From contig JAUCBJ010000648.1 in the NCBI GenBank assembly GCA_032718475.1, positions 1-64,000 of the forward strand: a DNA stretch of 64,000 nt, written 5' to 3'. The position numbers were made by a program, and so were the translations under genes. The notes under the pieces were generated by a model. The model searched no databases and had not been told where the DNA came from. It saw only the letters and a program-made list of their open reading frames with translations. Source of the DNA: Nemertoderma westbladi. Its lineage: Eukaryota; Animalia; Xenacoelomorpha. Below, one piece after another: positions 26,566 through 64,000 of this stretch (position 1 is the first letter of the stretch; the number at the start of each line of letters is the position of its first letter).

Positions 26566-26719
26566 CTGGAAGATTGAATAAGAAATTTTATATATTTATA
26601 TCAAACAAACGTCCGCAACCGTCACCTACAAACTGAAGTAACAATCGCAGTTATTCTGTTTATATTTCTAGGTTCGTTTAATTATATTTATTTTATTATT
26701 AAATTTAATTGCAGCCGTG

Positions 26720-28011: not shown

Positions 28012-28638
28012 CTGATGCTGGTTCACCTTCTATTACAGGAGTTGGATCCTGACAACCGATCTTATTACAGGCCACCACCGAGAAATAATGACGTTCATTG
28101 GGTAATTCTGGGACGATTATGTATGAATCATTTGTAATTCCTGTTGTTTTAGAATCAATTTTTTGGTTACTATTGGTGTACTCAACTCTAAACCATTGAT
28201 TAGATCCACCATTGAATCCTGGTGTCCAACTAACTTTTACACTAGAAGAGTCAACAGCTTCTACTTTAACTCCAGTCGGCATATGTGGAGGTCCTATAGG
28301 TTCCAACCTAACGTCACATTCAACCTCAGTATTACTGCTAGGGATACCATTTCCAACCCTCCCAAAGTAGGTTAAATTAAGATCATCACTGGTTACATTA
28401 TATATAGTTAGCCTTAAAACAGCTGTACTTTTATACTCAGAGTTCTCCACTACAACTGATGTTCTGTATTTATCACCATCGGGCAGCTTTTCATTAACGT
28501 CATTTTGACTAACCCAATAGACACTCGATTCAATAACAGCTGGATAACTTTCCATTGTACATGTTAGGTTAACCTCCTTTCCAAAAACTCCTATAACAGT
28601 TCGCTCTGTTGTGTCATTGTGAATCCAATGTGGTTTGT
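28012..28638 (-). CDS. Receptor copy B exon 3: Ig domain plus fibronectin type III domain
   Basis: Acceptor ttctttag and donor G/GTATGT, phase 1; NLTC..SYPA..YW; GPPHMPTGV..VSWTPGFNGGSNQWF..Y..VVACNKIG (nephrin-type FN3 signature). Confidence 0.88.
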
Positions 28639-29164
28639 CTAAAGAAAAAAATGTGTTTGTATTGTAATTATATTTATTATGTGGGAAATGTGAATTCAAT
28701 GCAACCACTACACCAAGGTGGAACCTTGGAATCAGAGTCGGGAAGTTATCAATAGTCCAAACACGACTGAAAGATGAAATGGTAAATTATAACATTGCGA
28801 GCTTCGAGCTTGATATTTTATCTAGACACGTTGCAATCAAGCAGCAAAATCTTAAAGTAGCCAGATTCTGGAATAGTTACTGTGTTACTGGTCGTATTGA
28901 TGTAGATTATATCATTAATATGATTTATAAATAATGACCTGAAGTTCGTATTGTTTGTTTTGTTTGTATTGAATTCTTATACATGCCTGGTCTGGGTTGT
29001 GTAGTTCAGTTCACCGTCTCAAAGTTGCACAAAACATTAAGTTTTAACAAAACGAGACGGGGGTTGGGTAACTTACGCCAATCCCATCAATGAAAATTGA
29101 AAATTAAATAAAAAAATGAAAATTGTAAATATATTGTGTGGAAGCGTTGACATGGAATTATATA

Positions 29165-29489
29165 GGGTAATATTTACAGTAGTTTATTGTTACTTACACT
29201 GAACTATTAACTCAATAGTGAATGACTCCAGTTCTACTAACAGTGATGGAGGGTAATATTTACAGTAGTTTATTGTTACTTACACTGAACTATTAACTCA
29301 ATACTGAATGACTCCTGTTCTACTAACAGTGATGGAGGGTAATATTTACAGTAGTTTATTGTTACTTACACTGAACTATTAACTCAATAGTGAATGACTC
29401 CTGTTCTACTAACAGTGATGGAGGGTAATATTTACAGTAGTTTAATGTTACTTACACTGAACTATTAACTCAATATTGAATGACTCCGT
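29165..29489. repeat. 86-bp tandem repeat duplicating the exon 2 3' end and splice donor (three extra copies in the intron)
   Basis: gggtaatatttacagtag..cttacactgaactattaactcaata at 29165, 29251, 29337 and 29423. Confidence 0.9.
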
Positions 29490-30058
29490 AATAGTTGATG
29501 AATCATAAAACGTATATTCGGCTGTAGTTGTGTAAATCCCTGAAGATCTTTTATTTATATCGATATTCCTAACTTCATCTCCACCGGTTACGAAGTCGCC
29601 ACTCCAATTATAATCAACACCTATATTGCATCCATCTCCATCTGGAATCCACTTTACCTCTATTGGGTCGTTATGAACTTCTAAACTTCTATTTAATTGT
29701 ATTGAATCACCTCCATTATAAGAAGTACCAGAAACTTTCAGTTCCAGATCACAATATTCTACAGTTACCGGTACCGCTGGGCTTTCTTTTCTCCCTTCCC
29801 CACCGTTGCTGTAACTACCGGTAAACTCGCACTTATAATCACCTCCATCGTCTGCGCGTAAAGGGTCTAGTGTAAATGTTGATGAATATGGTTCAGTAAC
29901 TATAGCTGCATCACCAGTAACATCTTTAGTACCATCAACATACCAGGACCAAGATGGATTCACATTGTAATCGTCTGCCGAACATTTTAATTCCAATGTT
30001 TCGCCTTTTTTCTTTTTAATCGCATCGTTGGGGTTAATGTTTATCCAAGACGGCAAAT
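29456..30058 (-). CDS. Receptor copy B exon 2: two Ig-like domains
   Basis: Acceptor gttccag and donor T/GTAAGT, 603 bp, phase 1; LELKCSA..WSWY..DDGGDYKC; second domain YNW..SGIYT. Confidence 0.88.
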
Positions 30059-35236: not shown

Positions 35237-35990
35237 GTTCCTTTGTCTGCCGCTAGAGGGCGAATTGACAGAAACGTAGAAGTACTGTAGCTGTACTTAT
35301 AGAACTAACCATCAGATTCATCTGAAATTTGTTAGGAGTGACCTATGAGCATTGCTTAAGTAGAAATTATACACAAAGACAGATTGAAATAAACGTAGAA
35401 GTAGCTGTACTTATAGAACTAACCATCAGATTCATTTGAAATTTGTTAGGAGTGACCTACAGGGTATGAGCATTGCTGAATAAGAAATAATTCTAAATAA
35501 GTACAGACTTCTACAGTTCCTCTGTCTGCCGCTACGGGGCGAATTCGCAGAAACATAATAGTAGCTATAATAGAACCAATCAGATTCAACTGAAAGTTGG
35601 AGTAGTGACCTACGATAATTGCTTAAATAGAACTGGTAGAGACAAGCTAACGAAGTAGTATACCAAATTTCGAGTACTCGGATTACATCTTTCTCGGGTT
35701 AACCTAGGTTAACCGAGTCTCGTGCTGCGCGAAGGCCCCACGAACGTGTATCCAATGGAATCACTTGAAACGTTAACCATAATGGCCGTGGAGTCTCTCT
35801 ACATTTAATACCCTTTCTTTCCCCATTTTGGACTTCACTCTTTGTCATTTACCGGCTTGGCTTCCTCCCTCAGAATGCCTCCAGCCGTCTCAGAAACCCA
35901 AGTCTACAGTCTGATGCTAACTGTGACTGATCGTATGTAACTAAATATATTGTAACATAATGTAACCTTTAGTGGATATCTCAAACTTAC

Positions 35991-36840
35991 ATTCAACTAC
36001 GATCGTAGTGGTACAGGATTTATCATCTTCTATAGCTCTATTCCTCGCCTTACATATAAACTCTGACCCATTATCTCCACGACTTAGATCTTTATTTATC
36101 CTCAGTGTATCTCCTGGTTCAGTTACGACTCCACCAATAGGAACTCCGATACTATCGTTACTATACCAACTCCATCTAGAATCTCCTGATGTACTTCCAG
36201 CTACCGGTGCCGGTACCCAATCCGATAACTTACAGTTTAATGTAGCTGAACTGCCTTCTATATAAGTACAACTCGGTAAGCAGCTACACTTTGGTTTAGT
36301 ATCAGCTTTACATTGGGTAAGAGGTATTATAAGTGGGTAAGTAGTCTGATCGGATATGGCCGGGTTGATTTGGAGTTCCACTACTCTATTCTCTTTAATC
36401 CAATATTTTATATTTATCTCAAATTCCTCCGGTATAGATTCAATAACAGGAGGATTCAACCCAACAGTTATATATCCTTCAGCTCCGGCTGTGTTGCTAC
36501 TTATATATTCTGTTGTATTCCATCTAACGCAAGGGATTTTAGTTTTATTGATGTTACAAACATCTCCGTTGGAGTTCGCTACATTATTCACACGTATGCT
36601 GTTACTATTATCATCCGTAGCAGTAACAGATAATTCCATTACATCGGAAATAGTTTCCGTTATTAATTCGCTAACCTCTTCAATAACAAAATCAACTTTT
36701 ACTCTAATACTATTTCTTTCTTCTTTAAATAAACATTCTCTAGTAAATTTAGATCCATCTGGTTCAACTAGTTTATATCCATTATACTTGAACCCCAAAA
36801 TAACATCAGTTAGTATCAGTAATATCAGTAATGATTTCAT
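35991..36840 (-). CDS. Receptor copy B exon 1: signal peptide, N-terminal domain, Ig domain (the four exons total 3003 nt = 1000 aa)
   Basis: MKSLLILLILTDVILG signal; donor T/GTAAGT; all four exons splice in frame via GT-AG phase-1 introns. Confidence 0.88.
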
Positions 36841-37000
36841 TGTTATTGGGGCAAAGTTTGTTGTTGAATTATAACAACTTATGTTTAAAATTGTGTCGGC
36901 ATTACAAAATTTATAGATTGAGTGCCGTTTTTAATCAATACAAAATATAAAATTATATATAAAAGATATTTAAATTATAAACTCAAACTCTATAATCCAC

Positions 37001-39531
37001 GGTAATGGTGAAAAATATCGAGACTTGAAAAATATCGAGAGTAAAAATAACGAGAGTAAAAATATCGAGAGTAAAAATAACGAGAGTAAAAATATCGAGA
37101 GTAAAAATAACGAGTGTTGAAAATTAACGTGATTAAAAAATATCGAGAGTAAAAATAACGCGAGATGAAAAATATCGAAAATAACGAGTGTTGAAAAATA
37201 TCGAGTGTTGAAAAATATCGAGAGTAAAAATATCGAGTGTTGAAAAATATCGAGAGTAAAAATATCGAGTGTTGAAAAATATCCAGAGTAAAAATATCGA
37301 GTGTTGAAAAATGTCGAGTGTTGAAAAATATCGAGAGTTGAAAAATATCGAGTGTTGAAAAATATCGAGAGTAAAAATATCGAGTGTTGAAAAATATCGA
37401 GAGGAAAAATATCGAGTGTTGAAAAATATCGAGTGTTGAAAAATATCGAGTGTTGAAAAATATCGAGAGTAAAAATATAGAGAGTAAAAATATCGAGTGT
37501 TGAAAAATATCGAGAGTAAAAATATCGAGAGTAAAAATATCGAGTGTTGAAAAATATCGAGAGTAAAAATAACGAGTGTTGAAAAATATCGAGAGTTGAA
37601 AAATATCGAGTGTTGAAAAATATCGAGAGTAAAAATATCGAGTGTTGAAAAATATCGAGAGGAAAAATATCGAGTGTTGAAAAATATCGAGTGTTGAAAA
37701 ATATCGAGAGTAAAAATATAGAGAGTAAAAATATCGAGTGTTGAAAAATATCGAGAGGAAAAATATCGAGTGTTGAAAAATATCGAGTGTTGAAAAATAT
37801 CGAGAGTAAAAATATCGAGAGTAAAAATATAGAGAGTAAAAATATCGAGTGTTGAAAAATATCGAGAGTAAAAATATCGAGAGTAAAAATATCGAGTGTT
37901 GAAAAATATCGAGAGTAAAAATAACGAGTGTTGAAAAATATCGAGAGTTGAAAAATATCGAGTGTTGAAAAATATCGAGAGTAAAAATATAGAGAGTAAA
38001 AATATCGAGTGTTGAAAAATATCGAGAGTAAAAATATCGAGAGTAAAAATATCGAGTGTTGAAAAATATCGAGAGTAAAAATATAGAGAGTGAAAATATC
38101 GAGTGTTGAAAAATATCGAGAGTAAAAATATAGAATGTTGAAAAATATCGAGTGTTGAAAAATATCGAGAGTAAAAATATCGAGTGTTGAAAAATATCGA
38201 GAGTAAAAATATCGAGTGTTGAAAAATATCGAGAGTAAAAATATCGAGTGTTGAAAAATATCGAGAGTAAAAATATCGAGTGTTGAAAAATATCGAGAGT
38301 AAAAATATCGAGTGTTGAAAAATATCGAGAGTAAAAATATCGAGTGTTGAAAAATATCGAGTGTTGAAAAATATCGAGAGTAAAAATATTGAGAGTAAAA
38401 ATATCGAGTGTTGAAAAATATCGAGAGTAAAAATATCGAGAGTAAAAATATCGACTGTTGAAAAATATCGAGAGTAAAAATAACGAGTGTTGAAAAATAT
38501 CGAGAGTAAAAATATCGAGTGTTGAAAAATATCGAGAGTAAAAATATCGAGTGTTGAAAAATATCGAGAGTAAAAATATCGAGTGTTGAAAAATATCGAG
38601 TGTTGAAAAATATCGAGAGTAAAAATATAGAGAGTGAAAATATAGAGTGTTGAAAAATATCGAGAGTAAAAATATAGAATGTTGAAAAATATCGAGTGTT
38701 GAAAAATATCGAGAGTAAAAATATCGAGAGTAAAAATATTGCATTTTGCTTGAGCATTTTATTTAGAATTATGGAACAATATTGCAGTGCATGGGTTACA
38801 ACAGTGCAAGTGCAAGTGAATGGCATTATGTAATACACCTTGGGTACCCATTTACCAGATTTATTATACTAGCTAGTTTTTGCTATTTTTTTTAATAAAT
38901 ATTATAAATGAAGTGCTAGCTATAAATTTTGATAAATATTATAAATATTGTTAAATATTATATTAGAACACTTATAAGCTACCAAATGTTGATAAATATT
39001 GTTGTTCTAGAACATTTTTAGTAAAAAAAATTATCATAAAACCCTTATTTAAAAAAATTGTTACTATCGATATTTTTACTCTCGATATTTTTCAACATTC
39101 TATATTTTTTTCAACACTCGATATTTTTACTCTCGATATTTTCATCACTCGATATTTTTCAACACTCTATATTTTTCAACACTCGATATTTTTTAACACT
39201 CGATATTTTTACTCTCGATATTTTTCAACACTCGATATTTTTACTCTCGATATTTTTCAACACTCGATATTTTTACTCTCGATATTTTTCAACACTCGAT
39301 ATTTTTACTCTCGATATTTTTCAACACTCGATATTTTTACTCTCGATATTTTTACTCTCGATATTTTTACTCTCGATATTTTTACCCTCGATATTTTTAC
39401 TCTCGATATTTTTTGAACTCTCGATATTATCGTTATTTTTCAACACTCGATGTTTTTACTCGCGTTATTTTTACTCTCGATATTTTTCATGTCTCGATAT
39501 TTTTCATGTCTCGATATTTTTCAATATAACC
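37001..39531. mobile_element. Foldback-type element: long inverted arms built from 14/16-bp aaaaatatcgag subunits (37010-38740 forward, 39065-39525 reverse)
   Basis: Mixed subunits aaaaatatcgagagt and aaaaatatcgagtgttg, mirrored on the opposite strand; termini ggtaatggtgaaaaa / tttttcaatataacc; no clean TSD seen. Confidence 0.75.
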
Positions 39532-45849: not shown

Positions 45850-47753
45850 TGAAGCGAAGAGACGTACCTGATATCCTGCAATATCCTACTGTAAAGTTTG
45901 TGAATCAAAACATAATCCGACCTTCTCACCAAAACAGTAAACTCTAAGTAAGCAAATCTATTGCAGTATCGGTCTCTTATAACCGGTGAGGCAGAAAACA
46001 GTCTACGAACGGACAAACTTCGATAAAACAAAATCCCGCGCAGCGAATCCTAAAATCGGGCTGACTCACTGACGGACTAAGGGCGCTCGTATACTTTGCC
46101 GCGGTGTGATTTATATGTGGGTGAGAGATAGAGGCGCTAGCTAGGTGTCTAACTAGCGGGCAAAGTGCAGTACGGACAAAAATTATTTTATATATTTTGA
46201 GGTGTAAATAATTCCTAACGCGTGTGTGTCTTGATTCTAACAGTCAAAATCAGTTTTAGATCCTTCATATATATAATTACTGGGTCCGGTGTACATTTTA
46301 CAAATATTCTAATTTTGTAGCTTGTAGGTCCAATACTCACGAATGACAAGGCTCCTTCCCCTTTTGTGTATTTCCAGGACTCAAATTCAGGCATAAGGTT
46401 AATACTACGCCCAGAATTCGGCAATTTAATTTACCAGGTCCCTAATACTAAGAAGAAATGTGTTAGTTTACTACAGTAGGCGTACAGTTACAAAATAGCT
46501 AGCCTGGCGTCCTATCTAGAATTTTGGTTGCCTAGGTGGGCACGGCAACTTCCTATCAGAATGTCGGCGGGGACACGGTAGATGTTAGTATCCCTAATAG
46601 CCTCAATTTATATGCGCCCAGCAGTAAACTGCCCTACCGCCTGAACGGTACAATCCCAATTCAGGTAAAAACACAGTAACCCTTCCTGGCCTACAAGTTC
46701 TAATGCAAATGGACACCGTTGTACTACAAACGGCCACCGACGCACCTATACCTGGCAAATGAGTTAGGCGTACAGCTTGCTGCACCCTACTAATGTGTAT
46801 GCCTTGTACTGGTGTGCCTGCGTTCTATCTGTGTACTAGTATCTCTCTGCCTGATCTCTTCCTCCCCCCGTAGGAATATGAAGGTCTACTGTGGGTTTTT
46901 CTGAATTAAGACAGTACAGTCCCTAAATGTAATTTTTAGCGCACAGCGTGTCAGTACCTCTACCTTCGATCTTAGGTCTTACACTTAGGTAACGAGGCAT
47001 CGAATGCTGTCTAACCTTTCAGGCGATGGGCGAATAACTAAGAATGGGTATTGCGGGTTGTCTCCTTCTACATTCCTCCGATGTTCCCGTCTATTGCCGC
47101 GGTCCGATGTCTAGCCTGCCATCTGTCTCTCAGTTGTGTTCACCGTGGTGAAACATAGTAAAAGCAGATGTAACAAATACTTTCTAACTTTATTACAAAT
47201 AAACAATAACTAATATACAATAAATGTAACAAGACGTAGTAAGAAGTGAATGATAATTGAAGTTTAAGATAAGTTTAAGTTTAAGATTGAAGAGTGAAGA
47301 TTAAGATAACTAATGAACAAATCGCACCCTTTTATAGCAAATTAGTGCTGCTAACAATCTAGATAAATCTCGATTGTTCTATGAGTTCTACTAGGTTTTT
47401 AAAGATAATCATTGGTCCAGCAAACACGTATCTTGCACGACATTGGTTACTATCTAATGACTGCAATCGCATTGGTTAATCTACCTTAAGCAGATACAAT
47501 TAAATCGTAGCGGTTAATTCAAATGAGTTGAAACTTAGCACAAAAAATAATTCACACTTGCTAGGATTCGAACTCGATACCTACTACACGATTTTCTAAC
47601 GCATAACCGACTGAGCTACTGAACCACTTAAACAATGTTACACAAATAGATATAGTAAATGCAAATGAGGACTTAATGTAATCTTTATAGCAAATTAATT
47701 CGAACAAAATAAAATTTTGAAAATCCACGGCTTTATGGGGATATAATTCTATA
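45850..47753 (-). repeat. E3 3' LTR (inner boundary inferred from the PPT)
   Basis: Matches 62644-64000 up to 47206; PPT-like GGAGCGG (plus ccgctcc 47754-47760, as in E2) marks the likely start, where TG appears mutated to TA; CCAAT boxes, TATAAAA (47331-47337) and AATAAA (about 47189) on the minus strand. Confidence 0.75.
47542..47625 (-). ncRNA. tRNA-like Pol III cassette (A box, B box, T6 terminator) in the probable U3 of E3
   Basis: GGTTCAG-TAGCTCAGTCGG-..-GAGTTCGAATCC-..TTTTTT; no intact cloverleaf seen. Confidence 0.6.
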
Positions 47754-48691: not shown

Positions 48692-51496
48692 TTATCGTTT
48701 TGTGGATTGAGCACGGCCGCGCCCTCGAAAACTGCGTACAGGCGACTTGGCTCGTACTACAGGGCTTATGGGGCGAGTCCCTGGTTTACCTTGGACGTTG
48801 GGAGACGGTGCGACCATTTCCTCACAAGCTCGCCTTCTAGTAATCCCAAATCCTCGTCCGACTCCTCGTGACCGACTAGTTGTATCCACTGTTGGCAAAA
48901 CGTCTGGGAACGCGCGGGAAGCGGACGACGCAGACCCAAGAGAAACTTGCGCCCCCCTTTGATCGACTGGTATGTGTCCTAATCCTACTTGCGGTTCTCT
49001 GGGAAGTGACACCGTATCCCGAGTAACGCGAATGGTCGGTTCATATCCCCTTCGTTCTTCAACATTTATAGTTCTCTTTAGTTGTTGGCTCACTTTCTGA
49101 ACCCTTATAATCCTATTCTGTCCGTCCTCCCGAGGGTGACGTGCAGACGGCGCAACCGGAGTAGCTGGTATGTTGGTCGCCTCTAGGATCTCCTCTTCCT
49201 CGAATACGCTCGCTCGTATACGTTTGTGATAGAATGCGGCTCGGTATGCCCATGCGAAGGTTAACCAAGCTCCCTTGTTCCGCTTTTCTGTTCGGAAACG
49301 ATCGAATTCACCATATGGGATACGATTGACGACTTTCTGGAAGTTCCATGTATTCTTATTATCGGGATGAATCTGTAGCAAATATTCGCGCACAACTCTG
49401 AATCCACTATCATGACGCAAAATATCGACTACCTCGATTAGTTCGTCATATTGTGGCATAGCGGAGATATATCCTTCCGACATCATAGTTTGAGGGTTTA
49501 CCGCCCAAAAATCCAAGATGTGCCCTCATTGGGAATCGTCTTCTTTGCGCCGATACATGTTCGTCAGCCAAATCTTCCCAATCATCAAACAGTTTTCGCA
49601 TTAATTTTACAGATTCGTGTTCGTATGGTATGTCTCGCAGTTGGCATTCAGATGCTCGATGTCCCTTTATATTGCAATATGTGCATTGAGCCATAAATCT
49701 CCAGCAAGTATAAAATGTATGGAACCCTTGATCTCCACACCATCCACAAATCAGTTGAGTCGTAGTAATGTGTTTTCCACTGCATTTCGTCGAATGATGT
49801 CCAGCGATGCCACATTTACCACACATCGTATTGGCAGGGTACCACACTCGCTCATATATGAGATCTCCAATGGGTCGAGCGCTTCCTCCCACACTATAGT
49901 CATAATCGTCTGGATCAATAGGTTGGTATGTTTCAGAAGGTTGTATGCAAACTACAGCATCTGTTGCTTCAAGTTGACGAATCTCCGTCTGAGATTTCTT
50001 CGGGAGGTTCCTTTCAATCTCAAGAAGTTCCTCTAGAGGATCATCGATGGTCGTCGTTACGTCGGAATCATCACCTAAGTGACCGATAGGCGCGCGCGTC
50101 TGCCGTGATTCGTCGATAACCTCCACGATACGTTCTCCTTCATAAGGTAACATTGTAAACATAGATGGTCTTTCGATAAGAGATCCCGCACAGCGAAGAT
50201 ACACGTCTCGAAATATACTAAATCCTGCCCGAGTAAAGGCGTTGCACTGAGCGTCGGAATTGTAGAAGGGTTCGAGAAATCGTCTAAACATGTCGGTGTG
50301 AATTCTCCCTTCCGCGTAGAACGTATGATCTTCTCCGAGGCAAAGTGGATGTCGTTTTAGAGTCCGAGACACAATGTCGGCGATCAAGCAAACATTCACC
50401 GATGACTCTATCGCTAAATAATATTGTAGTACTGCTCTTGGAGGTGAAGTAATAGCCCAATATACGCATCCTCTCCATTTAAGCTGTGATTCAAACTCAT
50501 TTATATCTGGAGTATCACCTTCTCCATACGTTTCGATATACTTTGTTCTTTTACTTTCCTTGTAATCCCAATTGAACAATAAGTAGGAAATGTATCCAGT
50601 TCCGGTCTTCTGAGTATCATACTCCCGGAAATATCCTTGTTCTATAGACCATAGTATAAGAGGTCGGGTGTCGACGTAAGGTGTCGGTAATCGGTCGTCA
50701 CTGTCCGACATGCCAGCAAAGTTGCTAAGTAAATCCTCTCTAACTCCTGATCCAATCTTTACAACGGTTTTATCTAAAATGATATTTCTGACCATCTTCG
50801 GTAACATCCTAGCGTCGATGTTGCAGGCTTGGTCCATCTTCTTTACTATATTAGTGATGAGATGGTGCCGCTTGGTATTTCCTGGAGGTATCGGCATTCG
50901 CTTGTCGCTCCTTTGTCTACTGAAACGTGCAAAACTCCGTCTGCCGCTCTAATTTGTATAGTCTTGGAAGTCAGACTCTGTTGATGGCTGCCGCCCTCGT
51001 TGTCATAAAACATGTAACCGTTTTCCTGAAACGATCTAAACGTTCTGTTCCATTCGTCCAATAATTCTTCCGAAGGTTGCCAAATCTTCTCTATGTCCTT
51101 CTCGTCCTCGAAGCGAATGATTTTACCTTGCCAGTTCGTAGCGATGTCTGTATCCGACTCAAAGGTTCCTGTTCCGATCCACAAACGAATTGTTCTGGTC
51201 AGATATCCTCTTAAGTTACTCGGAGCTATATCAGCGCCAGCTCTATCCAGTTCCCTAAAGTCTTGAATATGAGGCGGAACATTATGCAGGACCTTTTGCG
51301 TAATATGTCTACGTAAATCATATATCTTAACCATATTGCTTAGAACAACTGCAGGAAGAAACTCTAAGTTTGAAATGATTTCCGGATGATCCACAATAGG
51401 TATTTCATACGTCGTATCTTGTCGAACTGGTATACTAATAGGGAAATTGAGTGTCGTACTCAATGGTTTCGTAGTCGAAGTACTATGTGGTTGCAT
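48692..51496 (-). pseudogene. E3 accessory ORF: DEDDy-type 3'-5' exonuclease, three CCHC zinc knuckles and a basic/RG tail (two 1-bp frameshifts)
   Basis: ExoI MFYDNEG, TIQIR..LHVF, ExoII LPKMVRNIILDKTVVKIGSGVREDL, YVDT, ExoIII YLAIE; knuckles CGKCGIAGHHSTKC, CGWCGDQGFHTFYTC, CTYCNIKGHRASEC; indels in T-runs at about 50924 and 49509. Confidence 0.75.
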
Positions 51497-51555
51497 TTCT
51501 CTTGTCCTTTCCGGGGATGCAATCTGTAGCCTCTGAATAACGTTTTGGGCAAAGT

Positions 51556-52413
51556 TTATACTTTCGAAACTTCCGGTGTCATCTCCTTAGCTGAAGTTTG
51601 GTCGTGTGACGTCCAATGGTAAGGTAGGCTCGCGAGTCTTCCGCCCCATTCTTCCATCTCACCTTCCTCGAAAGCCTTATAGGCTCTGTATAGGCTAAGA
51701 GCTTCTTTCTTTTCGCGGGTTGACTGAGTCACCTCTTCCAGCGAAAGTTCAAACGCATCGGGTTCAACAATCTTAGGTGGACAAACGACAATTTCTCCCG
51801 CCTTTGGTCCACACATAGCAAATGAATGATACGGATTCGATAAAGGATACCCTCCTTTGTGGTAGCGTAGTTGTTGATGGTTCGAACACCTCGCCAATAT
51901 CGGTTCGGGATTTTCCTTAATCAAACGCATCGGAATCGCCTTTTGTTGTTCGCGCATACAAGCACCACATTGATAATAAAGTTTGTAAACTGAAAAGGCT
52001 TCCTTCGTTTCTCTATCGTCTCCTCGAGTTCGTCTGTAAAGATGCATTCCATCGAATTCATCGCGTACCGCAGGCATAGGTTCATGTGCCTTCAGGTATT
52101 GCATGGTATGATACAAACGACTAATTTCGGTGTCGGGGTCTTCACTGATATCTCCCGTATCACATAAAGCATCGTACGGATAAAGTTCATTGAAGGTTTT
52201 ACGCAAACTTTCGATTCTTTGGTTTAGAGCGTTCTGCCTCCTCTTTAATACTGTCGAGTCGTATTTAGTTTTAGCAAGTTTTGCTGTACTTTCTGATAAA
52301 TCCTTTATTCCGAATATGGTGTATTCCTTTGCACCGAATCTTTCGAATGGAGCTGCTGCTTCCTCTTGAATATCGTATCCCCATCTCGGCTCTCCATGTA
52401 TCCCTTTCGCCAT
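51556..52413 (-). CDS. E3 accessory ORF of unknown function with a CxxC..CxxH motif; possibly the N-terminus of the exonuclease polyprotein
   Basis: ATG 52413 (MAKGIHG); RLYHTMQY..YYQCGAC..RCSNH aligns with E2 RLYSTMMY..YYCDEC..RCAKH. Confidence 0.7.
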   Translation of the reverse strand: MAKGIHGEPRWGYDIQEEAAAPFERFGAKEYTIFGIKDLSESTAKLAKTKYDSTVLKRRQNALNQRIESLRKTFNELYPYDALCDTGDISEDPDTEISRLYHTMQYLKAHEPMPAVRDEFDGMHLYRRTRGDDRETKEAFSVYKLYYQCGACMREQQKAIPMRLIKENPEPILARCSNHQQLRYHKGGYPLSNPYHSFAMCGPKAGEIVVCPPKIVEPDAFELSLEEVTQSTREKKEALSLYRAYKAFEEGEMEEWGGRLASLPYHWTSHDQTSAKEMTPEVSKV

Positions 52414-53046
52414 TATTGGAAGTATAGTTACATAATAATTACTACTAGAGGGAATACAACAGAGTTTATTGTTAGTTGTGAGGAGATGTGAGAGTTTTCG
52501 TCTGCCCTTTTGGCTCGACAACGCTCTAACCTCCTACCCATAGCCTAAGATCTAGGGTTTCTTTAATGACATACTGTTTCTTATCTAAAATTTTTTGCCG
52601 AAATAAAAACGAATTTGGGCTAAACTGGGCTAACTTTGATCCCAAACTATTATCAGAAAATAAGCAATCGAGAGTTAGTAATAAATATAGGGAAGTCTAT
52701 TTGTTGACGTAACTTTTGAAACAAGACCGTGTAAAATTTTAATTTTAAAAAGAAAGGCTCGCGAGTCTTCCGTTCTCTTGTTTCTTTAATTTTAAGTCCC
52801 ACCCGACTGTACCCTGAAATCTATTCACTGGAGAAAATTTTTAAAAATTTTTCAAATCCAAATGGATTGTCTAAAATTTCGAAAATGTCTCAATATTGTG
52901 AGTTCCAAGTAGAATTCCATTTCTTATACCTACAAATCCCGCTCCTATGTGACACATAAGGGTACTACCCTCAATGTTCACATATAAAGACAATGGAATT
53001 CTACCGCTGTGTACAGGTACGTGGAAATCTATTTGTAAACTCCTTA

Positions 53047-56000
53047 CTATTTACTAACATTAGTTGGAGACTTGTAATCTCCAGACTCGTTTCGAGTCTC
53101 TTCAAGAAGTACGAGACATTGGGTCGGTATGTCTACTGTACGACCGTCAATTGCCCGTACCGTCACAGTTCTTGTCACTCCATCCATAGATGGATGTGTG
53201 TCTAAAATAACACCTGTTATCCAGAAGTGTCTTTTTAAATTCACTTCTGCCAACAGCACGTGATCTCCCGCTCTTAAAGCGCGAGTATTGTTGTACCAAG
53301 TAGTTCTGGCAGAAATAGAGGGCAAATAATGATTTTGCCATATTTCCCAGAATTTGTTAGCCAGTAGTTGCGTGATTTTCCACGCTTTTCTACCATAGCT
53401 GTCGCCTTCTATTGGAATAGAAATAGGCATTAATGAAGTCGGTGCCTGCATTAGCAGGTGTGCAGGTGTTAAAGCAAACTGGGATTGTTTGTCATCGGGT
53501 ACTAATACTATTGGTCTAGTATTTAGTATTGCCTCGATTTCAACAAACAATGTTGTCAGTTGGTCGTCTGTCAAGATGTGGTTTACTGGAATTACTTTCG
53601 CCATGGCTGTTTTTATAGATCTAATCAATCTCTCCCAGACTCCGCCTCTCCATGGACTATCTGGAGGATTAAACTTCCAAACAATTTTGTAAGGACATAG
53701 TTCGTTTGAGATTTGATCATGATCTAATTTCTTAAAGGCTCTAGCAATTTCATTTCGAGCACCAACAAAGTTTGTACCTTGGTCTGAGTACAAGCATTTT
53801 ACTAGTCCGCGTCTAGCGATAAATCGCCGCAATGCTAGTATAAAAGCGTTGGTGGAAAGATCCATCACACGTTCAATATGAACTGCCCTACTGGACATGC
53901 ATGTGAAAATCAGTCCCCAGCGTTTTACTAGTATACGTCCACGTTTCGTATGTATGGGACCAAAGCAGTCAATTCCAGTCTCTGTGAAAGGTGGTCTGAA
54001 TGCTTGTAGTCGTGCTTGTGGAAGTTCACTCATTTCTTGGGTACTTATTCTAGAATGTACCTTTTTACAAATAATACACATGCGCGTCACCGAACTTAGC
54101 GCTTTACTGGGTCTAATTAATACAAATCTTGTACGTAAGTAGGAAAGACAGTGGTGTCTTCCAGCGTGTTTCAGATGTAAATGTGCGTCCAGTATCATTG
54201 CACGTTGTAATTCGTGATGTTGTGGTATTATTATTGGGTACCTAAAATCAGTATTAAAGTCTATGTTTTGAAGCCGAGATTTATGACAAATTAAGCCATT
54301 ATAAATTATCGGACTCCAACTCAATATTGGTGGCGACTTGATTGGTTGACCTTGACTTATGGATGTGAATTCGTGTGCGAAATATTCCAATTGGTAATGG
54401 CGAATTAATTTAATTTCACATCTGTCAATCTCAGTCAATGTGAGTCGACGTATAAAGTCGCGTTTGCCTTTAACGTATTGTACAAAACGTACAATCCACG
54501 CTAATTTTCGGCACTCATTTGTCCAAGAATCTGTCAGATGTACAATACGGTCGACGTAAGTATTTATGACGTCATCAGGTAAGTCAATGATGAATTTTGA
54601 AGGTTTTGTTTTACTAGATGGGCCCACGGGTCCGCCGGTAGGTATTCCCTTGTTGACTGTTGATCCGTCCGGGTCTACGAGTAATTTGTCCCTCTTCGTC
54701 TTCTTACCTTGATTGTCAGTATCTTGTGAGTCGATCCCAGGTCTCACCGTAGGTTGTATGGTTGGTATGTCTCTTGAGCGTAAAGTAACACCTGTATTTA
54801 CATTTGCGTAGGTACTACCCACATCTGTAATACATGAGGTTTCACTGTGCTTATGGTTACTCAAGAGTGTCAAATTTGGTATTTTGTCAATAGAAGGCCG
54901 CTCCATTAGGGAAACTGCGGCTTTACTATGTGTTAGTATGTTACTAGTGTCCGGTAGAACATCTTGTGAAATGTCTGGTAAAATGTTTCGCAGAACATCC
55001 GGCGAAACGTCTAGTGACAGTCTGACAAAACGTCTGGTTGACAGTCTGGTAATGTGTCTGGTTTATCGTCTGGCGATACATCTGGTTGACCGTCTGGTAA
55101 CGTGTCTGGTTGACCGTCTGGCGATACGTCTGGTGTAGAAAGGCTCGCAAGTCTTCCGGCCTTAACTTTGTAAGTTATATTTTTCCATTTCGCCTTTGGT
55201 TTTTTCTTGAGTTTCGCCGTTGTCTTTTTCTTTGCTTTCCCTTTCTTTGGCTTTTTAATTTCGGCGTCCTTAGGGATAGTGTTAGACTTGTTATCGTATA
55301 GTGGCGGCCAATGTTGTGTTGCTCTTTGTAAGAATTGTGGTCCGTGTTGCCAAAATTTCTTGTTCTCCGGTTTACAGAATTCCTCGGGCATCATTCCTCG
55401 CGACGCAATATCAGCTGGATTTTGTGGTCCGGGACAATGTCGCCAATCTTCTTTTATTGAACGGTCTAGTATTTCTGCACGACGATTAGCTACAAATGTC
55501 TTAAATTCAAGTGTGTCGTTGTTTATATAAAATAAAACTAACGTCGCGTCAGTCCAATAAAATATCTGTAAACTTGACTGTAGTTCCGTCTGTATAAGGT
55601 TTACAATGGTGGTTGACAGAGTTGCGGCTTGTAGCTCAGCGCGTGGTGTCGTCATGTACTTAGTAGGCATGGTCTTAGCCTTGGAAGTAATGAGCGAAAC
55701 ATCAAACTCATCTGAGTCTACTTGTCTGCGCAAATACGCATGTCACTCCAAAGCCGTTGTCACTGGCGTCGGAAAAACAATGTAATTCTAAGTTGTCAGG
55801 AAATGTCGTCTGTAATGGAAAGTACACCCGGGGTATGGAATAATCCTCTAGCGAAGATAATTGCGCCTCCCAAGTTTTCCATAAGACTACTTGTTCTGAT
55901 GAGATCGGTTCGTCCCATGTCAGTCCATCTTTCCAAATACTGCGCATGTATATTCTTGCTTGCAGTATTATTGGGCTGATAAAACCTAATGGATCGAACA

Positions 56001-59000
56001 GTCTACTTAGTTTTGACAAGCAAGACCTCTTTGTCAGAGAATCTCCTTGAGCGTCCAGTCTTACCTTCACTCGAAAGTTGTCTGTGTTCGGGTCCCAAAA
56101 TAGTCCCAACACCTTTGTCGTCGGTAGTGGTTCAAATTCCAAGTCAATGTCACCACCCCCACGTTCAGTCGTTTCGAATTAATTTACTAATTCGGTACTG
56201 TTCGAAGCAAACTTGGTGAGGTTAAAACCTCCGCCAGCTAAACAGTCCCGTAATTGATGTGCTACTGTAATGGCACGTTCTACTGTGTCGCAAATTTGTA
56301 ATCCATCATCAACGTAAAAGTCTCGTTCTATTACTTGGATTACCTCTGGGTCATACTTATGTTTCTGATCCCTAGCGGTCTGCTTTAGGGTGTACATAGT
56401 GCAATTTGGGCTGTCTCTGGTACCGAATACGCGAACTTGCATTTGGTAAGTCGCCGGTGGTTGACTTAAATCTCCATCCGGGTACCAGAGGAACCTCAAA
56501 CTGTCTCTGTCTCGCTCTAACGCTCGCACCTGGTGAAACATGGCTTCGACGTCGCAAGTAAATGCTACTTGGCGTTGACGGAAGCGCATAATCACCCCCA
56601 TGAGATAATTATTCATGTTTGGTCCATCCATCAACTCCGTATTGAGAGACATTCCCTCAAACAGAGCCGCGCAGTCATTTACTACACATACCTTGTCTGG
56701 TTTGTCGGGGTGTCTCACGTAGTGATGTGGCAAATAGTATGTCTGGTCTGTCACAATCTCTGGGTTTGTCATCCTGATAGCGTACCCTTTCGTCAAATAC
56801 GTCTCCATCTGAGTATTATACTGCAGATGGGCTTTCTCGTCCTTTAATAAACGTTGTCGTATTGAGTTTAAACGTCTTAAGGCTAGCGGATAATTGTTTA
56901 TAAGTTTAGGACGTTGGTTACGCCATAACATCCCTACCTCATAATGTCCGTCTTTAGTCTGATGGATAGTATCTTCCATGATCTTTAAGGATTGTTTTTC
57001 TTGTTCCGACATGCATGGTTCGTAACTACCAGGTTCGGCTGTGTCTTGTTCCAACCACTTGATAGTTTTCTCTGTTAATTCTTTGTCCAAAGCAGCTTGT
57101 TCCACTTGACAATTTCTTAATGTGTCGACATCGACAGGTGTTGATAAGGTTATTGGTTGAGGTAGACTCGCAAGCCTTCCGGCGTTATCATCTATCGTTG
57201 ATGGATCCTCTGCCTGATGTGTCTCCTTCTTAATCTCTAAACTTACCTCTTTGTACAGTGGTTTCTGCTCCCTTTGACTTGTTGTACTTGCCACACATGT
57301 CGTACTTGTCACTTTGTCGTGTTTTGTCGAGTTTCGGCGTGTAGTATAGTCAATGTCGTTCGAAAAAGAATGAGTCAAAGTTGTAGTTAATAAACTACAT
57401 GTACTTTGCACATCATCTTCCTCGTCACTTATATCTAGTGTGCGCACAGGCGCTCGAGTATACCACCCTATCGGCGTTCTGCAGGCGTATGCGTTTCCTG
57501 CTACGACTACCGATGGTCTGGTTTCCCACACTTGATGTAAGTTGAATTGGTCTGTCCCAATCAGCATTGCTACTGACCTATAATTAACAGGACATTCAGG
57601 TACACCAAGGTGCCTAAAATACTTACGGTCCTCTAAGGATTGTTCTGGCACTGGACCCAGTAGGTTACTAAAGTCCTTAGTGGCTGCAAAGGTTAAATCC
57701 TTAAAGGGTAACAAAGACCTCTCCTTTTCGCTATGTTGCGATTTCGGAAGAAGTGTGTCTAAGTTCAACTTAACTCGTGTCACTGGTATTGCACGTTGTC
57801 CATGCATACTACTTACAGTATATCTGACGTTCTTACCTTGTCGAAGATCCGTCACGACGTCAGCTACCTTCTCATCCACATAGCTGTGAGATGAGGCTGA
57901 ATCTAAAATAGCGTAGATCCGTTTGCTCCCTTTGGTGCCCGTAATCTTAACAGGAATTACGCTAAATCCCTTCAGCTGATCAGGCGTCAGAAGTGCAATC
58001 GATGGTTGTTCGTCTCCATCTAAGTATGTGTCATCGTCTTCTGATTCTTCATCTGAAGACCCGGATTGTTCTGGGAAACAATCCCAAATATGCGTCACAA
58101 AGGTTGGTGTTGTTTTTGGTTCTCGCGTCTTGTACGCAGTGTTGCACTTCGCTGCTGCTTCTGGGTGTTCCCTGGTGAAGCATTTTGTCGGTGTATGACT
58201 ATCGGTGTGGAGCAAACCGTCATGGTTGCGTCTACAGGAAGGACAGGTGTCCGTATTTGTGCAATCTTTACGGACATGTCCGTGTTGAGTACACCTCCAA
58301 CAAGAATCCAATGATCGTATCTGTAGTCTTCGTTCTTCTGAGTTCAACTCACGAAATAGTCGACATCCCCTTAACTTGTGACTAGTGTGTCGCTTACCTA
58401 TCCGCTCGCAGTATTGACAACCGCTGAAGTCGGCATTTAGTTGCTGCCTAGTCTGTTTGATTCCAATGGGTGCGGACACGTTATAACCATCAGAAAATTG
58501 TCGGGTTTCCGTCGGTGTAGCGTATGTGACCGTCCTCGTGGATGTCGTCTGTGGTTTTTGTCGGTTGGTCGATGGCAAAGTTATTCTTTCGGCTATAATG
58601 TGTTGATCCGTGTAGTTCGAACGAGTCTCCACTACTGCCTCCCTAGATATTAATAGGTACACATCTTCCAATCTTAAAAATCCACCTGTTTCTTCTCGCT
58701 GATACTCGATCTTTCTCCACTCCCTACGAAGTCGATGGTGTAATCTCCCTATTATTTTTAATAGGACTGTAGGAGTGTTTCCGTAATCAAGTTGTCCAAT
58801 CGACCGTAATGTCTTAATAGCGTTCTTGATTTCGTCAGCTAATTTAAGTAAGTCCACGGGTTTCGTAATGGCCCCTCCTTTACAGAGTTCCTCTATTACT
58901 GACTTGGCCATACTTACTGTACCTCCATAAATGGAAGTTAAGCGATCGTGTTCTAATTCGAAGGCGTCTGGTACACCGACGAAAGTCTCTGCTAGACGTT

Positions 59001-61791
59001 TTGGTTCTCCCGTCAGCATTTGAAGCAGGTAGTTAAACTTTTCCCTCGATGTAAAAGCGCATGCCGCAATTTGAGATTCGATGTAATCCACGAAGGTATG
59101 CTAATGTTTTGAGTTTCCGGAGAACTTTGGTGGTTGCTGCGCCGGTAATCCTTGTCTGGCTGCGAACTTAGCTATCTCTTCTGCAACATTCAAAGTTTCG
59201 CGTCCCTGGGTAACAATAGAGTTCGTTTTTCCCTGTCCAGGACGTCTTTTCTCATACTCTACATTCCCTGAAAGTACCATCCTTTGCGGATGCTTCGGGT
59301 GTCTAGTATGTTCGAATTCCGTGTTTCTCGAACTATCAGTTTGAACTTCCTCTAAGCGTTCCTTGATCTGGGCCAACTTGTTGACAACTGGTCGCATTAT
59401 GTCGGCTAATTGTTGCGTACTAATTGCGTCCGTTGGTTGTAACGCTTTCTGTGTTGGTGTATTTTGTGGAGGATTATCTATAAAGGAATTAGTTGAACGC
59501 TCGCGTTTGCATTCATCGGCCGCTCCTGTTCTAAACACCTCGCGTTCCGGGTAATCCGATTCGCTCAAAGTACTACTATCACCTGGATACGGTGGCCGAC
59601 GTGCTCGCGTCCGTTGGGTTGTCCGAATTCTAACATTCCGTTTCGAAACATCGTCTACTGGTCTCCGTTGTTCGGTAGGCTCACAAGTCTTCCTTGAAGT
59701 CGTAGATTGCGATGTAAACTGATTAAACGGTCGCGTGTCTACTGGTCTCCGTTGTTCGGTAGGCTCACAAGTCTTCCTCGAAGTCGTAGATTGCAATGTA
59801 AACTGATTAAACGGTCGCGTGTCTACTGGTCTCCGTTGTTCGGTAGGCTCACAAGTCTTCCTCGAAGTCGTAGATTGCGATGTAAACTGATTAAACGGTC
59901 GCGTGTCTACTGGTCTCCGTTGTTCGGTAGGCTCACAAGTCTTCCTCGAAGTCGTAGATTGCGATGTAAACTGATTAAACGGTCGCGTGTCTACTGGTCT
60001 CCGTTGTTCGGTAGGCTCACAAGTCTTCCTCGAAGTCGTAGATTGCGATGTAAACTGAATTTGTGGTCGTGTGTTGGCGTTTGAGTCTAACGGCCTTGAA
60101 GGCCTGAATACGATTGGGTTTGCGTAGTGTGTCACAGGTTTAGGTGTCGAAGGTTGACTCACCTGTTTAGTCGTCATTAATGTAGGTCCGACTAATAAAC
60201 TACTACGATCCGTTATTGGCGGATTACTTACCTTGACCTTTGGAATAGGCGATGACGTTGCTCTTGGCGGTACAAACTTGTCCGGAATAACATACCTGTG
60301 TTCCGTCGCATTGTGTATAGGAGATATACTGCTACTACCAGCAATCGAAACAGGTCCTTTATTCGTAATTGGTGCGAACATCGGAGTTACTTGAGGAAAT
60401 CGTTGACATAAGTCTTTAACCAATTCCTGTTCTCGCTCAGGTGCTCCTACGCTTCCTTCCTTCATTCGTTCCTGAATTTGACGATGTCTTACCTCTATCC
60501 GGTCTAGATCGTGTCCGTCTTGAAGATCCAGATCTTCTTTGGCATTGGCTAATTCCCTCGCCTTCTTTTCGAGTTCGAAATGAAGTTTAACTTCCTTCTC
60601 GCGTTGTTCCGTCTGTTGTTGTTGCGCCTCGAACTCTGCTAGTCGTATAGCTGATTGAGCCTTTATCTGCCGTTTTCTCAACTCGGCTCGGGCTTCCGAA
60701 ACTCGCTTTTGTTCTTCTAACTCTGCTGCTTGTCGTTCCAACTCAGCTGTTGCTGCTCGTTGCGCTAACTCAGCTGCCGCTGTTTGCTGTGCTATTTCTA
60801 GCTCTAGCCTTTCCATCTCAGCTGCTTCTAGTTCGGCTGCTTCTTGTAGATGAGAGATTCTCGCAACATTTGCGACGCGTAGTTTCTCTTCCTCTACAGC
60901 TGCTTGTACAGTTAATAATTGAGTTTGTTCCTCAATTTCTCGTTGTTGTCTGTAGTACTGTTGTTGCTGTCGAGAAATTTCTGACGTTACCATACTTACC
61001 TCGCCAATTTCGCTGCGAATACTCACCAATGATTGATCCAGTATTCCCGGTGCCAGTTCGATTTGTACGGGTGAAGTTTCCCTCGTATCTTCCGGCACGG
61101 TTTCCAAATCGCCGACGTCTTCGCCGCACATACGTAAGTGATCTGTCAGATGTTTCAATTGTCCATCCAGTCTGTACAGTTCCTGTTCTTCCTCGGGTTG
61201 TAATAATTCGTCAGAAACTGACTCACCTAACAACTGGTCCGCTTGTTCTTGTTGTATCAATCTAACGGCCGTCTTAAACTGAATTAATTTCTCCCTGGCG
61301 ATTATTAATTTCTCGAGGATTCTGAACTGAGTGTCCGCGTCCTGCCTTTGTCTAGCTAGATCTTGTAGACTGATCAGGTTATCTACGGACTTATGTACTT
61401 TACTTTTTACTCTAACCTGTAAGGTGTAGAACTCGAACCGGGACATCGGAGCGGTCAACTCGTTTAATATGCGTTGGCCTTCTCCAATACTCCTGGTGAT
61501 ATGCGCCATGTATCCTCCGACGCTTCTAACTACGCTCTCTTGGCTTCCTACTGAACTTACCATGTCCGTTTCCCTGTGTCTAGGTTGCGGGACCGTTAGA
61601 AAATCCTCAGTCCTGCCGTCGCCTCGTACTACGGCATCCGGTACTCCCGTTAGATGTACTGGTGACGCGCACGGTGTAGGTTCGGTAGGCTCGCGAGTCT
61701 TCCCCTGTGGTTCTTCCGCTACTGACTTATCCGCGTCACATGAGTCATAGTCGGTAGGTGTATTCTTCGTATAGTCCTGTTTGTCACTCAT
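53047..61791 (-). pseudogene. pol: E3 gag-pol polyprotein (BEL/Pao) with 2 nonsense codons (59101, 56179) and 2 frameshifts (about 55740, 55013)
   Basis: DUF1759-like gag and triple knuckle; protease ILDSAS; RT YYLPHH..DVEAMFHQV..FG..FYVDD; RNase H FSDAS, PRAEL, WTD, NPADIASRG; integrase HH-CC, IDCFGP, SDQGTNF, WERLI; DUF5641-like tail. Confidence 0.95.
59650..60070. repeat. 84-bp coding tandem repeat (5 copies) in E3 gag
   Basis: Encodes FTSQSTTSRKTCEPTEQRRPVDTRPFNQ. Confidence 0.95.
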
Positions 61792-62556
61792 TTCGGTAGT
61801 TGTAAGTCAAGTAAAGTGAGTGTCAAAGTATCAAACTTACCGTATTTATATCTAAACGGTATTAATTACAGTCATATAAAATTAGCCTACCGGCCGATTT
61901 TATAGCAAATAGATAAAATTAGCCTAGCGGCCAATTTTACAACAAATAAATGTCACGGAGTCGGTATATAATAAAATTAGCCTACCAGCCAATTTTATAA
62001 CAAATAAAATCGGATAACGATATACGTTATCAAAAGGTAAATCAAACACAAATAATACGGACTAATTCAGCAATAAACAAAGAAATCGTACGGAATGCAT
62101 AAATACTTGAGACAGTGGAACCCACAATAATTTTAACTAATACGGTAATGCCTAACTGATTTATGCAACTTTTCGAACTCACCCCCTCCAATAATTCTCC
62201 AGAAAAACAGATTCCCAGATACAAACCGGATGTGAACCTTTCCGTTTCCAGCGTTGCGGACGAAGTGCGATTTTCCCAACCAAAATTGTTGAGTTATCTA
62301 TCTCCCAAACTTGCGAAACACGGTCTTGCTCTCGTTACAGTCTAGAAATGAGCTCTGAATCCTGAAAAACAAAAGAGTTAGCACCGGTATTTTACCGGTT
62401 TTTTAAACACCGGTATTCAATTCCAAATATTTTACACGCGGTTCAAATCAAAATTTTATTTCAAAAATTAGCACTTAGCTAATCAAATACAAATTTTTAC
62501 CTCAAAATACAAATTTTCAAATAACTTAAGTCCTACTGAACCGTAGTTCAGTAAAA

Positions 62557-62643: not shown

Positions 62644-64000
62644 TGAAGCGAAGAGACGTACCTGATATCCTGCAATATCCTACTGTAAAGTTTGTGAATC
62701 AAAACATAATCCGACCTTCTCACCAAAACAGTAAACTCTAAGTAAGCAAATCTATTGCAGTATCGGTCTCTTATAACCGGTGAGGCAGAAAACAGTCTAC
62801 GAACAGACAAACTTCGATAAAACAAAATCCCGCGCAGCGAATCCTAAAATCGGGCTGACTCACTGACGGACTAAGGGCGCTCGTATACTTTGCCGCGGTG
62901 TGATTTATATGTGGGTGAGAGATAGAGGCGCTAGCTAGGTGTCTAACTAGCGGGCAAAGTGCAGTACGGACAAAAATTATTTTATATATTTTGAGGTGTA
63001 AATAATTCCTAACGCATGTGTGTTTTGATTCTAACAGTCAAAATCAGTTTTAGATCCTTCATATATATAATTACTGGGTCCGGTGTACATTTTACAAATA
63101 TTCTAATTTTATAGCTTGTAGGTCCAATACTCACGAATGACAAGGCTCCTTCCCCTTTTGTGTATTTCCAGGACTCAAATTCAGGCATAAGGTTAATACT
63201 ACGCCCAGAATTCGGCAATTTAATTTACCAGGTCCCTAATACTAAGAAGAAATGTGTTAGTTTACTACAGTAGGCGTACAGTTACAAAATAGCTAGCCTG
63301 GTGTCCTATCTAGAATTTTGGTTGCCTAGGTGGGCACGGCAACTTCCTATCAGAATGTCGGCGGGGACACGGTAGATGTTAGTATCCCTAATAGCCTCAA
63401 TTTATATGCGCCTAGCAGTAAACTGCCCTACCGCCTGAACGGTACAATCCCAATTCAGGTAAAAACACAGTAACCCTTCCTGGCCTACAAGTTCTAATGC
63501 AAATGGACACCGTTGTACTACAAACGGCCACCGACGCACCTATACCTGGCAAATGAGTTAGGCGTACAGCTTGCTGCACCCTACTAATGTGTATGCCTTG
63601 TACTGGTGTGCCTGCGTTCTATCTGTGTACTAGTATCTCTCTGCCTGATCTCTTCCTCCCCCCGTAGGAATATGAAGGTCTACTGTGGGTTTTTCTGAAT
63701 TAAGACAGTACAGTCCCTAAATGTAATTTTTAGCGCACAGCGTGTCAGTACCTCTACCTTCGATCTTAGGTCTTACACTTAGGTAACGAGGCATCGAACG
63801 CTGTCTAACCTTTCAGGCGATGGGCGAATAACTAAGAATGGGTATTGCGGGTTGTCTCCTTCTACATTCCTCCGATGTTCCCGTCTATTGCCGCGGTCCG
63901 ATGTCTAGCCTGCCATCTGTCTCTCAGTTGTGTTCACCGTGGTGAAACATAGTAAAAGCAGATGTAACAAATACTTTCTAACTTTATTACAAATAAACAA
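62644..64000 (-). repeat. E3 5' LTR (truncated by the window edge)
   Basis: Direct repeat of 45850-47206. Confidence 0.95.

Follow-up and report, generated by a model that had tools for sequence, protein, structure and literature searches.

In a 64-kb stretch of Nemertoderma westbladi DNA (contig JAUCBJ010000648.1, positions 1 to 64,000; hereafter the window), two LTR retrotransposons carry a third gene behind pol, and the locus raises the question of what these genes encode and what their products might do for the elements that carry them. A first-pass annotation had read them as a conserved accessory protein with an unrecognised zinc-type motif, possibly fused to an exonuclease in one of the two elements. 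We examined the elements, the similarity between their third genes (ORF3), the continuity of the longer gene and a repeated DNA motif that accompanies it.

Results

Three BEL/Pao elements in the window

The window holds three BEL/Pao elements, E1, E2 and E3, all located on the minus strand. The LTRs of E3 flank gag and pol in the order PR-RT-RH-IN, as read from the translations and from Pfam. DUF1759, Peptidase_A17 and DUF5641 were above the Pfam cut-off in its gag-pol and Integrase_H2C2 below it; the reverse transcriptase, for which Pfam gave zero matches in E3, was read by eye. DUF1759 was also above the cut-off in E1 and E2. We take DUF1759, Peptidase_A17 and DUF5641 to be marker families of BEL/Pao. 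From the direct LTRs, the domain order and these marker families, E3 is a BEL/Pao LTR retrotransposon (Belpaoviridae). BEL/Pao elements are metazoan, and the Belpaoviridae are described with genomes of 4.2-10 kb and LTRs of 0.2-1.2 kb (PMC8742986), ranges which E3 exceeds well with more than 18 kb and LTRs of more than 1.35 kb. E2 is without RT and nearly all of the integrase and keeps gag-protease, a spacer and ORF3. Only the 5' part of E1 is inside the window, its 3' end being beyond it; its C-terminal gag region matches that of E3 at 42% over 189 aa and that of E2 at 34% over 101 aa.

The N-terminal gag regions of all three elements are very long, charged and repeat-rich (59101-61806, 18246-19568 and 612-3425), with tandem arrays of 84 bp inside the gag of E3 and of 33 bp inside that of E2. 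Right behind both 5' LTRs (62640-62560 and 21877-21860, minus strand) the sequence begins with GTA, where a tRNA primer site would usually have TGG, and the GTA-starting stretch of E3 is tandemly repeated. No tRNA genes were found in the window. At 6820-7884, 25643-30134 and 35794-36930 lie exons of the host, which encode Ig and fn3 domains and probably a membrane segment; identity between 6820-7867 and 35794-36841 is 85%, which suggests that the elements inserted into a family of tandemly duplicated receptor-like genes. A 15/17-bp satellite forms two inverted blocks at 36970-39520, and its long open frames probably arise from the repeat itself. Two neighbouring frames at 8632-9768 resemble a LINE endonuclease region by eye; one of them was scanned and had no Pfam match.

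Table 1 Coordinates of the features of E2 and E3 in the window.
Feature	Position	Strand	Basis or remark
E2 element	11454-23074	-	LTR pair; 5-bp target-site duplication
E2 3' LTR	11454-12652	-	99.1% identical to 21878-23074
E2 ORF3 region	12712-14257	-	about 515 codons; two frame changes and in-frame stops in the window copy
E2 copy of the shared core	13489-13859	-	C-x2-C-x16-C-x2-H at 13590-13519
E2 gag-protease, short RNase H stub and last integrase residues	15975-19568	-	
E2 5' LTR	21878-23074	-	LTR pair match and 5-bp target-site duplication
E3 element	45850 to past the window end	-	>18 kb; LTRs >1.35 kb
E3 3' LTR	45850-47206	-	99.5% identical to 62644-64000; minimum length, inner end not fixed
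E3 ORF3 piece D	48692-49525	-	Arg/Pro-rich tail; no significant family match
E3 ORF3 piece C	49449-50948	-	rest of the exonuclease-like domain and CCHC knuckles
E3 ORF3 piece B	50849-51586	-	linker, then exonuclease-like start (DxE-type motif, by eye against WRN-like bacterial exonucleases)
E3 ORF3 piece A	51556-52413	-	285 aa from ATG; open frame
E3 core common to E2	51847-52239	-	helical stretch, RLYxTMxY, DxFxxMxxY, LxYxCxxC, RCxxH
C-x2-C-x23-C-x2-H, putative single zinc site	51877-51969	-	residue pattern
Non-coding spacer behind E3 pol	52414-53046	-	0.63 kb
E3 gag-pol, BEL/Pao type	53047-61806	-	broken by one stop and frame changes
E3 5' LTR	62644-64000	-	LTR pair match; cut by the window end
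Near-palindrome, 12 copies in 8 places	48094, 48599, 51627, 52756, 55142, 57161, 59678-60029, 61688	- (element)	

A cysteine/histidine core common to two third genes

Both peptide strings that had been quoted as similar exist, one in the E3 frame 52413-51556 and the other behind the pol of E2, where it spans a frame change with its first half in 13877-13632 and its second half in 13617-13066. Their alignment holds: with the break read as X, the joined E2 pieces gave a local BLOSUM62 score of 111 against E3, which none of 2000 shuffles reached (shuffle maximum 61, Gumbel p ~5e-9). Scored in the same way against the E3 protein, the first E2 piece gave 80 (0 of 2000 shuffles) and the second 50 (7 of 2000), and among the 213 stop-free window frames of at least 60 aa (26,601 aa in total) these two pieces rank right after the self match, the next score being 45. 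The upstream E2 piece, 14244-13873, has no similarity to E3 (score 33, reached by 718 of 2000 shuffles). The core comprises E3 residues 59-189, with 37 of 116 aligned residues identical (32%), and the pattern C..C{10-30}C..H occurs twice among the 213 frames, once per element, with a spacer of 23 residues in E3 and 16 in E2.

The wide distance between the two elements was also borne out. Their LTRs do not resemble each other in DNA sequence (E 0.087 at best, over 18 nt), and their gag-proteases are 24% identical over 540 aa, so that the core is roughly as conserved as gag-protease; at the DNA level the cores of E2 and E3 show no similarity. Both ORFs lie in sense orientation behind pol, as described before, after spacers of 0.63 kb in E3 and about 1.7 kb in E2. 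Pieces B, C and D of the E3 gene have no match in E2. Of the conserved accessory protein proposed by the first-pass annotation there stands a shared domain of about 130 aa behind pol, and not the whole protein, the two ORFs being otherwise unrelated. The annotation further took the gene to be lineage-defining; the window offers two carriers of the domain, E2 and E3, and the term stands as a conjecture. Judged by these comparisons, the cores are almost certainly homologous, and the homology is real and old; protein similarity kept without DNA similarity would point to long-term selection on the core. Three Cys and one His, kept as two pairs across a variable loop, suggest a single zinc site, and this residue pattern makes zinc binding by the core fairly probable.

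The two frame changes of the E2 ORF3 are near 13.87-13.88 kb and 13.62-13.64 kb. In contigs of other copies, a length difference at the upstream change is found in most of the depth and one at the break inside the core in 0-30% of it, and further indels and deletions of 167-172 nt occur within the ORF. The low depth at the core break together with these additional lesions indicates that ORF3 may be decaying in much of the E2 family. In run X1, 31,688 contigs aligned to a 3.4-kb stretch of E2 and 2,872 to a 4.5-kb stretch of E3; these figures are not copy numbers, but they suggest that the E2 family is heavily amplified and possibly non-autonomous.

The E3 third gene as a probable single frame

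From an overlapping frame at 51586, the ORF with the core in E3 had been suggested to be possibly fused to the exonuclease, with about 1240 aa in total. This frame is real and extends to 50849, and four successive overlapping frames (A to D) span 52413-48692, about 1240 codons. Other copies were compared in contigs from four DNA runs, representing at most three samples. Of the best 12 of 17 length differences, 9 belong to the spacer of 0.63 kb, and the 3.7 kb of coding sequence has the other 3, each at a different frame change. The length difference at A/B accounted for the greater part of the depth in every one of the four runs, that at B/C for a minority in three of them and that at C/D for a minority in all four; contigs with loose ends at B/C and C/D may conceal more such cases. 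A 1.9-kb contig that reaches from A through B into the start of C shows 200 substitutions but only 2 gaps.

Length differences in other copies coincide with all three frame changes of the window copy, and the E3 family therefore probably encodes one continuous ORF of about 1240 aa. The frame breaks probably belong to the window copy or to its assembly, and piece A is probably not a free-standing gene. Fusion of the core to downstream sequence is thus the probable part of the earlier proposal, and the exonuclease is a ranked lead and not a significant match. In the best-supported rows, differences at codon positions 3/1/2 numbered 17/16/5 of 38 in E3 (p 0.10) and 7/5/2 of 14 in E2 (p 0.15); substitutions are scarce at second positions, and third positions are not significantly enriched.

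Exonuclease-like stretch, knuckles and hydropathy

Piece C contains two strict CCHC knuckles (49823-49782 and 49685-49644) with one longer-spaced knuckle between them, and zf-CCHC was found there by Pfam below the cut-off (E 0.0016). The top ESM Atlas matches of piece C were PF01612 clusters at 0.87-0.88, scores below 0.9 being treated as leads only. In a set of 716 sequences, 500 of them shuffles, WRN-like profiles from 12 bacterial sequences ranked the B-X-C and C frames highest, with E values of 0.19-0.38. A local hhalign of the exonuclease-like stretch scored 27.4 against 18.0 for the best of 40 shuffles, with one wrong-frame row in the profile, and a global hhalign with the corrected WRN-like profile scored 2.5, below the shuffles. 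The mixed RNase D/Pol I profile (11 sequences) gave no signal (E 13 or worse), and no exonuclease family of Pfam matched the E3 pieces. In the alignment, ExoI DxE-like and ExoII D-like motifs are matched, and the ExoIII YxxxD candidate, placed by eye, has E for D. Taken together, a DnaQ/WRN-like exonuclease fold downstream of the core is likely. Neither exonuclease-like nor knuckle matches were found in the E2 ORF3.

In a 19-residue Kyte-Doolittle scan, the four E3 pieces peaked at 0.54-1.39, with no value above 1.4 and a hydrophilic N-terminus; the E2 ORF3 peaked at 1.59, in its last piece.

Searches for the family of the core

The domain had been called unrecognised, and it matched no family of Pfam, NCBIfam or PHROGs. 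The large protein searches for the core used E3 piece A or the joint E3+E2 alignment as queries. With piece A, phmmer returned 0 hits at E<=0.001 from 1.84 billion representatives, and a word search among proteins of 156-499 aa found no homologue; the joint alignment, searched at 259-2000 aa, gave none at E<=1. A search with piece C at 876-2500 aa found no homologue. Pieces A and C found nothing in phages, and among PDB sequences there was no credible match, the best (E 0.009) being a designed protein. Metagenome contigs searched with piece A also gave nothing; these blanks say nothing of the range of the domain, because an E3 integrase control found nothing there either.

In the ESM Atlas, piece A reached unnamed clusters at up to 0.82 and FLYWCH and GCM clusters at 0.76-0.77. 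Single-sequence AlphaFold models had pLDDT values of 35.6 and 31.1 and were unusable, and a fold search with the first gave nothing; the first half of the core is predicted to be helical in such a low-confidence model. Several known families were considered and set aside. FLYWCH, GCM and WRKY have the Atlas level of 0.76-0.77 only, no Pfam match and no HxH after the motif common to E2 and E3. THAP is a C2CH domain with a spacer of 35-50 residues, against 16 and 23 here, and no THAP match was given by Pfam. Resemblances to SBP, coronavirus nsp14, B-box and KDZ CxC were without Pfam support and were dropped. In the literature searched, which consisted mostly of titles and abstract openings outside subscription journals and Repbase reports, such a domain is undescribed for BEL/Pao elements, and no discussion of ORF3 was found in the accessible part of PMC8556966. 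The shared domain is apparently undescribed, in a gene slot that is itself already known.

A repeated near-palindrome in E3

A 16-nt motif has 12 matches at up to 2 mismatches in E3, all between 48094 and 61703, and none elsewhere in the window; 0.01 were expected by chance and none of 100 shuffles reached 12. With its flanks the motif is an imperfect palindrome of 20 nt with a CpG-rich core. Its coding sites are the gag N-terminus, the gag array, the protease-RT and RNase H-integrase stretches and the tail of piece A after the core, and its non-coding sites are the spacer behind pol and, twice, the 3' non-coding region. Five copies sit in the 84-bp tandem array of gag (59678-60029). The sense strand carries eleven of the 12 matches, and the remaining one has its inner asymmetry swapped; where the two central CpGs have changed, it is always from C to T on the sense strand. 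This strand bias and these changes would suit a strand-specific signal. The motif folds as its own hairpin at 5 of 13 sites, with weak energies. The near-palindrome is a candidate packaging, export or protein-binding signal.

De novo scans recovered the motif in E3 at 9-11 places against 3-4 in shuffles, and in E1 and the internally deleted E2 they gave no dispersed motif above shuffles (2-3 shuffles each). The observed/expected CpG ratio in the elements is 0.8-1.35; with CpG undepleted, there is no sign of heavy DNA methylation. A search of nine supplementary files of PMC3118150, the longer of which may be cut short, did not find the motif. As E2 gave no match to the exonuclease or the knuckles and no dispersed motif above shuffles, the shared domain is tied to none of these.

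Discussion

How the core may act

We tentatively favour a reading of the core as an RNA-binding adaptor. The domain of about 130 residues in the third genes of the two BEL/Pao elements would fold around one zinc ion and bind the element's own RNA, tethering the ORF3 protein to it. In E3 the core would be the N-terminal part of a protein of about 1240 residues and bring the exonuclease-like domain and the knuckles onto the RNA, which these may trim, shield or help to export. That RNA is the ligand, in the service of export, trimming or shielding of transcripts from small-RNA silencing, is a possibility that we hold with the same reserve. That ORF3 is expressed by way of a spliced subgenomic mRNA, like env or CERV, has in our view about even chances; a branch-point-like CTAAC (52475-52471) and, 32 nt before the ATG, the AG (52446-52445) that closes a pyrimidine-rich tract were picked out by eye and are unscored. 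The near-palindrome would be a candidate response element, whose reader could be the core, the knuckles or Gag.

The core could instead be a zinc-stabilised scaffold for self-assembly or for binding of a host protein or Gag, with nucleic-acid binding left to other modules. It is the sole module common to E2 and E3, its first half is predicted to be helical in the low-confidence model, and the cysteine domain of CERV is predicted to form rings (available part of PMC10309623). The conserved Arg, Tyr and His round the zinc site would fit nucleic-acid contacts equally, and we consider a pure scaffold rather unlikely.

Still less probable is a sequence-specific DNA-binding anti-silencing factor, VANC-like, that keeps its own element transcribed through the multiplied motif. 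Twelve near-palindromes, which in the window are confined to E3, would suit such a factor: they lie in the spacer, in coding linkers and in the 3' non-coding region, and a tandem array holds five. The palindromic form of the target would also suit it, being apt for a dimeric DNA binder. The FLYWCH and GCM clusters of the Atlas point in the same direction at lead level only (0.76-0.77). The layout recalls VANC targets as far as the available part of PMC5735166 describes them, namely short, in one orientation and multiplied by tandem repeats. However, E2 carries the domain without such a motif, undepleted CpG (0.8-1.35) gives no sign of heavy methylation, and the strand-biased C-to-T changes, in motif copies which are not independent where duplicated, are unexpected from symmetric CpG decay. 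No sequence link to VANC was found either, the two being compared by description.

ORF3 is very unlikely to be captured cargo or a relic that plays no role today, even though both window copies are broken, contigs of the E2 family have indels and deletions in the ORF and the codon-position skew is not significant (p 0.10 in E3, 0.15 in E2). For rotifer ORF3s, too, no significant deviation from neutrality was seen inside the genome, according to the accessible part of PMC5408684. Against a relic, the protein similarity of the core has outlasted the DNA similarity, the length differences between E3 copies (12 of 17 listed) avoid the coding stretch except at the breaks of the window copy, no host or viral donor appeared among 1.84 billion representatives, and the gag-pol of E3 is likewise broken. 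An env or env substitute is largely excluded: ORF3 occupies the env position and some belpaovirids have env-like genes (PMC8742986; PMC554778, as far as accessible), but no 19-residue window exceeds 1.4 in the hydrophilic-starting E3 pieces, which thus have no membrane-length hydrophobic stretch, the E2 maximum is 1.59 and Pfam gave zero env family matches.

Comparison with known accessory genes

The RNA-binding adaptor that we favour would have its nearest precedent in CERV, and the comparisons below draw on the accessible parts of the cited papers, with the exception of PMC8742986. CERV is the product of a non-env 3' ORF of the C. elegans element Cer1, made from a spliced mRNA, and its cysteine loop is required to concentrate on the element RNA and to export it (PMC10309623). 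It has 517 aa, gag-frame exons and a C4 loop of C193, C195, C200 and C269 (PMC10309623), whereas the core has C-x2-C-x16/23-C-x2-H and E3 likely an exonuclease and knuckles; compared by description, the likeness is an analogy only.

Also comparable are the ORF3s with a DEDDy exonuclease in the bdelloid rotifer LTR retrotransposons Juno and Vesta and in the Athena/Terminon elements (PMC5408684). Compared by description, they are like E3 in being non-env and in having an RNase D-like exonuclease, no TM domain and an altered DEDD motif, and they sometimes carry a zinc motif (PMC5408684). They differ in their host elements, in that no N-terminal domain like the E3 core is described in what was accessible of that account, and in the exonuclease assignment, which is weaker in E3; a BEL/Pao context was not found there either (PMC5408684). 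A DnaQ-like exonuclease is a known accessory domain of LTR elements (PMC6338049). The third genes of the BEL/Pao elements Tas, Cer7 and Atlas are described as env-like (PMC8742986; PMC554778; PMC9094657); E3 shares with them the element class and the gene slot, but its ORF3 is soluble and not env-like. Extra ORFs behind pol are also known in plant LTR elements, where their role is unknown; they are family-wide and in the same place and orientation as the E3 ORF3, with no common domain shown in the accessible text (PMC7264820).

Within BEL/Pao, the novelty of the two parts of the E3 protein may differ. Some Cer BEL elements of C. elegans may have an exonuclease-like extra ORF, for which the literature search gave no confirmation; if so, the exonuclease would be less novel and the novelty of the core unaffected. 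VANDALs, the hosts of VANC, are plant DNA transposons. Like E3, they combine an element-encoded accessory protein with a short motif in one orientation, multiplied in part by tandem repeats, and in the Arabidopsis VANDALs the targets are of 9 nt, non-palindromic and mainly in non-coding DNA (PMC5735166). The E3 motif, in contrast, has 16-20 nt, is near-palindromic, lies also in coding linkers and is missing from E2.

Significance

Interest in this locus is tempered by the fact that extra ORFs without an assigned role are common in LTR elements (accessible part of PMC7264820) and that the evidence consists of two broken copies from one genome. The domain is nevertheless kept across elements merely 24% identical in gag-protease, and in E3 a candidate protein comes with a candidate cis motif. 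A protein-plus-response-element system in an animal BEL/Pao element, in which the zinc domain reads the motif and in E3 carries the exonuclease to it, is improbable at present. If true, it would amount to a Rev- or VANC-like counter-defence, acting by RNA export or by blunting piRNA silencing, of a kind undescribed for BEL/Pao in the literature searched. Among animal LTR elements, well-understood regulators of such kind are few, CERV being one of them, and an ORF3 that is soluble and modular and holds an undescribed zinc domain would be a new accessory family for BEL/Pao.
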